Part shown: positions 5,059 through 5,382 of the stretch, piece by piece
How positions within the stretch are numbered: the first letter of the stretch is position 1
How the letters are laid out: the number at the start of each line of letters is the position of its first letter
Source of the DNA: a virus
Taxonomy: Duplodnaviria; Heunggongvirae; Uroviricota; Caudoviricetes
Virus record (IMG/VR): IMGVR_UViG_3300045988_024768
Span: 1 to 20,162 of that record
DNA length: 20,162 nucleotides
Strand: one strand, 5' to 3'
The notes under the pieces: model-generated
What the model saw: the letters and a program-made list of their open reading frames with translations, nothing else
What the model was told of the DNA's origin: nothing
The model's database searches: none
Program-made: the position numbers and the translations under genes

Positions 5059-5382
5059 ATGGAACTCGTAAACCTCAAAACCGGCACTGACAGCTACCAG
5101 GATGAGAGCGGAGAAACCAGAACTCGCGATGAATACCCGTGGGGGCTGTGCATCACTCTTAATAACGACACATTGAATAAGCTGAAGGCGCAACCTCAGG
5201 GCGTCGGAACAGAAGTGATGATAACTGCAAAGGCTGTTATTCGAGGCCTGTCTGCCAGAGAAACTGACGATGGTGTTAATCGCAGCGCCGATCTGCAGAT
5301 CACTGATATGGCGATCGCTCCTGTTTCCGGGGATGTAGAAAAATCAGCGGCTGAAACCCTGTACGGCAATGGGGGTGAGTAA
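5059..5382 (+). CDS. Small head protein (107 aa), possible decoration or capsid-targeted protein
   Basis: AGGAG at 5049-5053, ATG at 5059. C-terminus ...EKSAAETLYGNGGE shares SAAE[V/T]LYG with the scaffold C-terminus. Stop overlaps the next start (TAATG). Confidence 0.55.
   Translation: MELVNLKTGTDSYQDESGETRTRDEYPWGLCITLNNDTLNKLKAQPQGVGTEVMITAKAVIRGLSARETDDGVNRSADLQITDMAIAPVSGDVEKSAAETLYGNGGE

Follow-up and report, generated by a model that had tools for sequence, protein, structure and literature searches.

What does a 107-aa head protein do that is described in databases as a staple on the outside of the capsid and that ends in the same short motif as the scaffolding protein? The question is raised by a stretch of 20,162 nucleotides (the window), which showed 97–99% identity to Escherichia phages phiV10, TL-2011b and PAS61 (Uetakevirus, epsilon15-like podophages) and is, by its sequence, a phiV10-like Uetakevirus. 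Its head-tail module includes the portal (502-2181, PF12236) and a Bbp19-like protein (2178-2474, PF25181), followed on the + strand by an acidic 231-aa protein homologous to epsilon15 gp6 and BPP-1 Bbp18, the putative scaffolding protein (2477..3172, phrog_458), and by the major capsid protein (MCP; 3181..4173, PF20911 at 2e-149), whose PDB matches were 3j4u_A (BPP-1, 1e-128) and 3j40_A (epsilon15 gp7, 2e-85). Next on this strand are gp8, a Bbp16-like cement/decoration protein (4225..4662, PF21190 at 4e-47), the small head-module protein gp9 (4664..5008, phrog_590), the gp10/Bbp20-family protein that databases call ‘capsid staple’ (5059..5382, PF21628 at 1e-51) and the tail adaptor gp11 (5382..5987, phrog_394). 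The nozzle (5987-8458, phrog_376) and, downstream of it, T7-like internal virion proteins (e.g. PF24072) complete the module.

The sequence-only reading had pointed out a block, SAAE[V/T]LYG, shared by the C-termini of the scaffold and gp10, and its coordinates proved exact in both genes. The scaffold ends in ...GNEGQRSAAEVLYGK, which includes QRSAAEVLYGK; SAAEVLYG spans S223-G230 (3143..3166, + strand; AGT GCG GCC GAA GTG CTC TAT GGC) and is proposed here as a coat-docking peptide. gp10 ends in EKSAAETLYGNGGE (...GDVEKSAAETLYGNGGE), where SAAETLYG spans S96-G103 (5344..5367, + strand; TCA GCG GCT GAA ACC CTG TAC GGC) and would be a copy of the scaffold tail. The two blocks agree at 7 of 8 residues and 15 of 24 nucleotides, with the same codon at 3 of the 7 identical residues. 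When the last 20 residues of 16 window proteins were compared, scaffold and gp10 gave the best ungapped BLOSUM62 score, 38, and the runner-up pair scored 24. In 400 composition-preserving shuffles, the maximum over 120 pairs was 24.3 ± 3.0 and never exceeded 34. Moreover, in the complete genomes of phiV10, epsilon15 and BPP-1 (461–539 ORF C-termini each), the gp10 homolog was the top match to the scaffold tail. Shuffling and these three independent whole-genome rankings place the likeness far beyond chance, and gp10 carries a scaffold-matching C-terminal segment, as expected of a scaffold-tail mimic. We found no description in the literature of a tail common to the two proteins. Apart from scaffold and gp10, no real gene of the window had a C-terminal [LFMI]Y[GPDS]. 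A general capsid-targeting tag common to ejection proteins was also considered and rejected; both in the window and in the three complete genomes, the tail was restricted to scaffold and gp10.

Conservation of this motif was examined in 94 diverse loci with their surroundings, in which scaffold, MCP, gp8, portal and gp10 were located by jackhmmer and which provided 58 distinct scaffold-tail/gp10-tail pairs. A tail of the form ..A-A-[ED]-x-L-[YF]-[GP] was kept at both C-termini in 51 divergent lineages, and both tails were kept in 13 of 13 divergent prophage loci. Alignment across related phages thus bore out the conservation expected from the sequence-only reading, in both proteins and with few gp10 members lacking the tail. 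Position-specific profiles were the same for the two tails, [KR]-[ST]-A-A-[ED]-[VT]-L-[YF]-[GP], with the aromatic residue 1–12 residues from the C-terminus. In enterobacterial gp10 homologs, K-[ST]-A-A-[EQD]-T-L-Y-G was constant and the preceding linker freely variable. A profile search of 1.84 billion representatives placed 3,487 clusters (50% identity) in the gp10 family at E<=1e-3, and 123 of 125 gp10 representatives (50% identity; listed members with the QITD core) had a hydrophobic-aromatic tail. A few family members had no tail (L111, L169, L175 and P0263) and stopped right past the LQITD strand.

Beyond this common core, the tails of scaffold and gp10 resembled each other within lineages. 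For example, epsilon15-like phages have AFYP at both ends (scaffold SDLISAFYPKK; gp10 KELKDAFYPGGEDD, including KDAFYPGG), and BPP-1 shares RLYxASxMxx between Bbp18 (GDARRLYAASNMNP, core ARRLYAASNMNP) and Bbp20, its gp10 homolog (SAAQRLYGASSMSA, core AQRLYGASSMSA). Similarly, scaffold and gp10 end, respectively, in TSIADRLFGKPA (including IADRLFG) and MPIADRLFAKGA (including IADRLFA) in L128, in DAKRFYPNSNMN (including FYPNSNMN) and DARALYPNSSMN (including LYPNSSMN) in L132, which share YPNSxMN, in TAQRLYSASKMNP (core AQRLYSASKMNP) and GAQALFNASGMNP (core AQALFNASGMNP) in L184, and in SAADVLFG and TADVLFDGGE in L180. In a permutation test of 26 lineages with an MCP similarity ratio <=0.80, cognate tail pairs scored 23.8 versus 16.9 ± 1.0 for permuted pairs, and 0 of 20,000 permutations reached the observed value (p<5e-5).

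Such matching could be a by-product of recurrent exchange of 3'-end DNA (gene conversion), or of chance or low complexity, and have no common function; the motif is short and alanine-rich, and the scaffold and gp10 genes are only ~2 kb apart. However, identical residues of cognate tails used the same codon in 80 of 225 cases, whereas about 107 were expected from local codon usage. The count thus lies below, not above, expectation, which argues for selection on the peptide and against gene conversion; the earlier suggestion that the block reflects peptide-level selection rather than a recent DNA duplication, made from the window, was thereby extended across lineages. The match also holds for lineages with as little as about 30% identity and for either of the two gene orders described below (37 and 14 of the 51 lineages), and chance had been excluded by the shuffles and genome rankings. 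Exchange or chance is already largely refuted as an explanation, and we regard it as hardly credible.

We found that MCP identity was the best predictor of similarity in both tails (rho 0.46 and 0.54; 51 lineages). When portal, scaffold body, gp10 body or gp8 was controlled for, the partial Mantel correlation between MCP and the tails was 0.39–0.53 (p<=0.0005), in tests whose lineage pairs are not phylogenetically independent. The reverse tests, in which MCP was controlled and portal, scaffold body or gp10 body was the predictor, gave 0.03–0.17. The exception was gp8, which kept a significant partial correlation of 0.18–0.29 with both tails after MCP control. The worst predictors were the tails' own protein bodies. 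With this tracking of MCP, the tails behave as coat-matched modules, possibly matched to the coat-cement pair.

Comparison with individual loci illustrated this behavior. Against the epsilon15-like prophage L106, the window was 81% identical in portal, 71% in the Bbp19-like protein, 75% in the scaffold body and 85% in gp11, versus 43% in MCP, 40% in gp8, 44% in gp9 and 47% in gp10. The scaffold alignment stopped at ...VTGGNE/VTGGHE, and the last dozen residues changed with the MCP block, being LYG-type in the window and FYP-type in L106. The mosaic block relative to L106 (~3135-5382) comprises the last ~12 scaffold codons and the MCP, gp8, gp9 and gp10 genes, with a recombination boundary just upstream of the scaffold tail. 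In L104, MCP and gp8 were 79% and 76% identical to those of the window, the gp10 body 47% and the portal 69%, and the tails were of the window's type (SAADVLYG and TAADTLYG). Two gene orders were observed: MCP-gp8-gp9-gp10-adaptor in 37 of the 51 lineages, and portal-gp10-Bbp19-scaffold-MCP in the other 14, including BPP-1. Loci with the gp10 homolog between the portal and the Bbp19-like gene were L192/L195 (BPP-1), L108, L132-L134, L161 and others. The tight linkage of the tails with MCP, gp8 and gp9 contributes to the tracking of MCP, part of which could represent block inheritance. Linkage cannot explain, however, why one peptide is found on two unrelated proteins, nor why this holds in both gene orders. 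A mutual information scan of MCP columns against tail class located no pocket and picked hypervariable columns only.

These correlations also bear on the identity of the binding partner. Because gp8 keeps an independent partial correlation of 0.18–0.29, gp8 itself, or a surface formed by MCP and gp8, could be the partner. More generally, both tails might bind a common partner other than the coat, such as gp8 or gp9, or might bind one another, in which case gp10 would cap the scaffold tail through helix-helix contact. The gp8 values with MCP controlled (0.29 and 0.18 for the two tails), the presence of gp8 and gp9 within the same exchanged block and the ability of like amphipathic helices to pair are consistent with such a partner. 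On the other hand, MCP was the stronger predictor in every comparison, gp9 was detectable in 50 of 94 loci whereas the tails were near-universal, and in BPP-1 gp8 acts on the exterior of the expanded capsid, a place where no scaffold would be expected. Pairing between gp10 and scaffold is further opposed by relatives that have a scaffold of the same family but no detectable gp10, and whose scaffold nevertheless keeps the tail: ERMYPNYPA in Pseudomonas phage Ab31, SLLYPNDKTA in Vibrio phage 1.185.O, AVLWPTMQQQ in Pseudomonas phage AF and ERLYGKTT.. in Microcystis phage Mel-JY33. No second motif-bearing protein was found at these four loci. The scaffold tail therefore has a function for which gp10 is not needed, and the motif was first the scaffold's own, with gp10 as the mimic. 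A common partner other than the coat is, in our estimate, rather unlikely, and a common docking site on MCP for the scaffold and gp10 tails is supported indirectly by the comparison of lineages.

The scaffold itself was assigned from gene position, composition and predicted helices. Its gene sits between portal and MCP, and the protein is acidic and predicted to be disordered and helical, as is typical of scaffolding proteins; pelagiphage homologs are annotated as capsid assembly protein. No peptidase or other domain was found in it in Pfam or NCBIfam, and no PDB relative in a sequence search. In an AF2 model, which has the low confidence common for scaffolds, residues 13-98 are disordered and acidic/proline-rich and residues 99-210 are helical; a Gly-rich linker (211-223) then leads to a short helix (224-229) that coincides with the motif. 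In most public records and in PHROGs this protein is named protease, peptidase or endoprotease. The label goes back to an old remark on similarity attached to epsilon15 gp6, and no domain supports it. In Sodalis phage phiSG1 (L198), a degraded prophage-like element, the scaffold homolog lies in a fusion ORF (‘putative endoprotease of epsilon15 and p12 of epsilon15; fusion protein’).

The naming is relevant to another reading of the shared tail, that it is a processing or degradation signal for a protease or chaperone, which would time the removal of both proteins, rather than a docking peptide. Scaffolds must leave the procapsid, C-terminal degrons exist, and many records annotate the scaffold as endoprotease or peptidase. 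That name is, however, the legacy annotation just described, and neither the scaffold nor the rest of the head module has a protease domain. In addition, LYG-type (P0002) and FYP-type (L106, L107) tails both occur in Citrobacter prophages; since the same host genus bears both types, a host factor does not explain the switch, and the tail type follows the phage MCP instead. BPP-1 capsid proteins are also uncleaved. Thus, we consider a degradation signal highly unlikely and a docking peptide the better account of the tail.

We then considered what is known of gp10. It matched PF21628 with 173.6 bits (cutoff 27) over residues 5-101, which places it within this family, and PDB 3j40_N (epsilon15 gp10) at 2e-21. 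In alignments of the family, the YPWGL and LQITD[ML] core columns were invariant. In the AF2 model (mean pLDDT 74), residues 9-26 and 53-88 form beta-hairpins and residues 36-41 a helix; a disordered linker (89-96) then leads to a short helix (97-102) that corresponds to the motif. No fold relatives of the gp10 body were found in PDB, BFVD matches were limited to its own family, and 3j40 was the sole match of a gp10 profile against PDB. In sequence, the body is unrelated to the scaffold, and only the tail is shared. AF2 thus puts both motifs as short helices after disordered linkers, at a tail pLDDT of 35–49 in the models of the two proteins.

According to the databases, gp10 would be an exterior capsid staple whose tail touches the outer capsid surface, and its likeness to the scaffold tail would be unrelated to docking. 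PDB 3J40 built the epsilon15 gp10 sequence into exterior staple density, the gp10 family name stems from this model, Pfam and NCBI names follow it, and a 2025 paper repeats the staple description. However, in a 2022 re-analysis an AF2 model of the 111-aa epsilon15 gp10 fitted the staple density poorly (map-model CC 0.10), whereas a 130-aa epsilon15 protein fitted it well (CC 0.61, refined 0.81), and the authors considered the original staple assignment probably wrong (PMC9207676). The epsilon15 record lists this 130-aa protein as gp8 and notes its similarity to BPP-1 Bbp16. The gp8 of the window likewise matched PDB 3j4u_H (‘cementing protein’) and 8cjz_B (‘capsid decoration protein’). gp10 had no PF21190 match, and these cement chains were matched by gp8 and not by gp10, which therefore lacks the marks of a cement protein. 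Two head proteins are abundant in BPP-1, Bbp17 and Bbp16; the gp10 homolog Bbp20 is not one of them, and the 3.5 A capsid was built from Bbp17 and Bbp16 (BPP-1 structural study). The capsid of the CP2-like phage PhiXacm4-11 was similarly described as MCP and a Bbp16-like cement protein only. An exterior staple would also leave the co-variation of the gp10 and scaffold tails unexplained. Proteomics of infectious epsilon15 virions putatively identified gp10 (as recounted in PMC9207676).

Published work indicates a mis-assignment: the staple density of epsilon15 is that of the Bbp16-like gp8, not of gp10. Although epsilon15 gp10 (3J40, PF21628) is a clear sequence homolog of the window protein, the staple function in the PF21628 family name is probably that of gp8, and we find an exterior staple role for gp10 decidedly unlikely. 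The view of the sequence-only reading that gp10 is not a simple exterior decoration protein agrees with this literature, in which gp8 explains the epsilon15 staple density better (PMC9207676) and the abundant proteins of BPP-1 exclude Bbp20. The NCBI name ‘capsid staple protein’ and the name of Pfam PF21628, ‘Gp10-like, major coat protein-like’, seem to carry forward an error in the assignment of a cryo-EM density.

Taken with the matching of tails to MCP, our preferred reading, to which we give a probability of roughly 0.55, is that gp10 copies the coat-docking peptide of the scaffold and would enter the same MCP pocket, inside the shell or as a competitor of the scaffold, rather than being an exterior staple. 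The scaffold-docking site is the most likely place for gp10 to plug in, because both tails change together with the coat protein across lineages. In this model, the A-A-E-x-L-Y-G-type peptide, a short amphipathic segment on a flexible Gly/Pro-rich tether, would be the coat-docking element of the scaffold throughout the epsilon15/BPP-1/CP2 podophage supergroup, with MCP as the proposed partner of both tails. gp10 would present a copy of the peptide on its own flexible linker and, because it carries this copy, is predicted to dock in the scaffold's MCP pocket. It could thereby be recruited inside the assembling shell or compete with the scaffold for coat subunits, and the exterior staple role would be left to gp8. 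An interior or competitor role is suggested because, wherever scaffold tails have been seen to act, they do so at the inner procapsid face. Thus, we infer an interior site, binding of the scaffold tail to the coat and sharing of that site by gp10; the conserved gp10 body (YPWGL, LQITDM) would presumably have its role after docking. Capsid reconstructions of relatives have reported no tail-like density on the inner capsid surface.

A broader possibility is that members of the gp10/Bbp20 family, which has about 3,500 clusters, are not staples but passengers or assembly factors encoded by the phage, and that scaffold-tail mimicry loads them onto the inside of the procapsid. This extension is tentative, and we place it short of even odds. 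The gene context provides some hints. In both gene orders gp10 adjoins a portal-vertex gene, either overlapping the start of the adaptor, to which it is translationally coupled, or lying directly 3' of the portal, and because it is always beside such a gene it may act at or near the portal vertex, or displace the scaffold during maturation. In the window, the gp10 stop overlaps the gp11 start (TAATG, 5380-5384). On the other side, toward gp9, folding gave a GC-rich hairpin of 7 bp and a UUCG loop (5025..5042, + strand), which lies between the high-copy head genes and gp10, with a z-score of only -1.0 over 53 nt and no call in a consensus terminator scan. The epsilon15 record has an annotated rho-independent terminator at the same gp9-gp10 intergenic position, and the hairpin may be a partial terminator. 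Together, the hairpin and the TAATG overlap suggest that expression of gp10 goes with that of the low-copy tail genes rather than that of the coat genes. The hairpin and the portal-vertex neighbors hint weakly at a lower output of gp10 than of coat-stoichiometric proteins and at a possible association of gp10 with the portal vertex.

Encapsulins provide a working analogy: their cargo-loading peptide, a short C-terminal segment on a flexible linker, recruits an otherwise unrelated protein to an inner-face pocket of a shell with the HK97 fold. However, encapsulins are bacterial compartments with a different targeting consensus, and no homology with gp10 is implied. The closest parallel among phages is the scaffolding protein (SP) of phage 80alpha and CpmB of the satellite SaPI1, which both end in a helix-and-hook and are rivals for a single binding site on the N-arm of the coat protein within the procapsid (PMC5644958). 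Like CpmB, gp10 is small, otherwise unrelated to the scaffold, and matches its C-terminus with its own C-terminal segment. Unlike gp10, which is the phage's own conserved head gene, CpmB is satellite-encoded, hijacks the phage and redirects capsid size. The gp10 motif A-A-E-x-L-Y-G also shows no sequence similarity to the RIIK of 80alpha and CpmB, and no homology to CpmB was found, with gp10 matching PF21628 only in Pfam and 3j40 only in the PDB profile search. For CpmB, binding and competition have been demonstrated, whereas their gp10 counterparts are predicted from sequences. As in the helix-turn-helix of P22 gp8 and the helix-and-hook of 80alpha SP, the putative coat-binding element is C-terminal, tethered to a helical or disordered body and matched to the coat. 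In contrast to those elements, it measures about 8–10 residues and is defined by comparative sequence analysis, and the phrog_458 scaffold family is without a solved structure.

The analysis proposes a concrete, mutable scaffold-coat docking motif for epsilon15, phiV10, BPP-1, BcepC6B, CP2 and pelagiphage relatives, in which no such contact is known, and offers a testable function for a very common small phage protein with an apparently misassigned name. Scaffold-tail mimicry is known from a satellite that hijacks its helper; if the proposal is true, phages use such mimicry themselves and tailed phages have a built-in system resembling cargo loading. A short capsid-targeting peptide could then serve as a cargo-loading tag, notably in BPP-1 and phiV10-type phages. 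The latter have found use as E. coli O157 reporter phages. BPP-1 was presented as a display platform in the BPP-1 structural study.

Two further features were noted. In enterobacterial loci (L098-L107, L159-L191), the scaffold motif is followed by basic residues (K, KK, KN) and the gp10 motif by Gly-rich or acidic ones (GNGGE, GGEDD), a systematic difference that could tune the relative affinity of the two tails. Differences between the window and phiV10 were found in the large internal virion protein ORF (9392-12274), which is about 300 nt longer than its phiV10 counterpart, and in the region of the 783-aa tailspike (17461-19812), which falls outside the phiV10 match.
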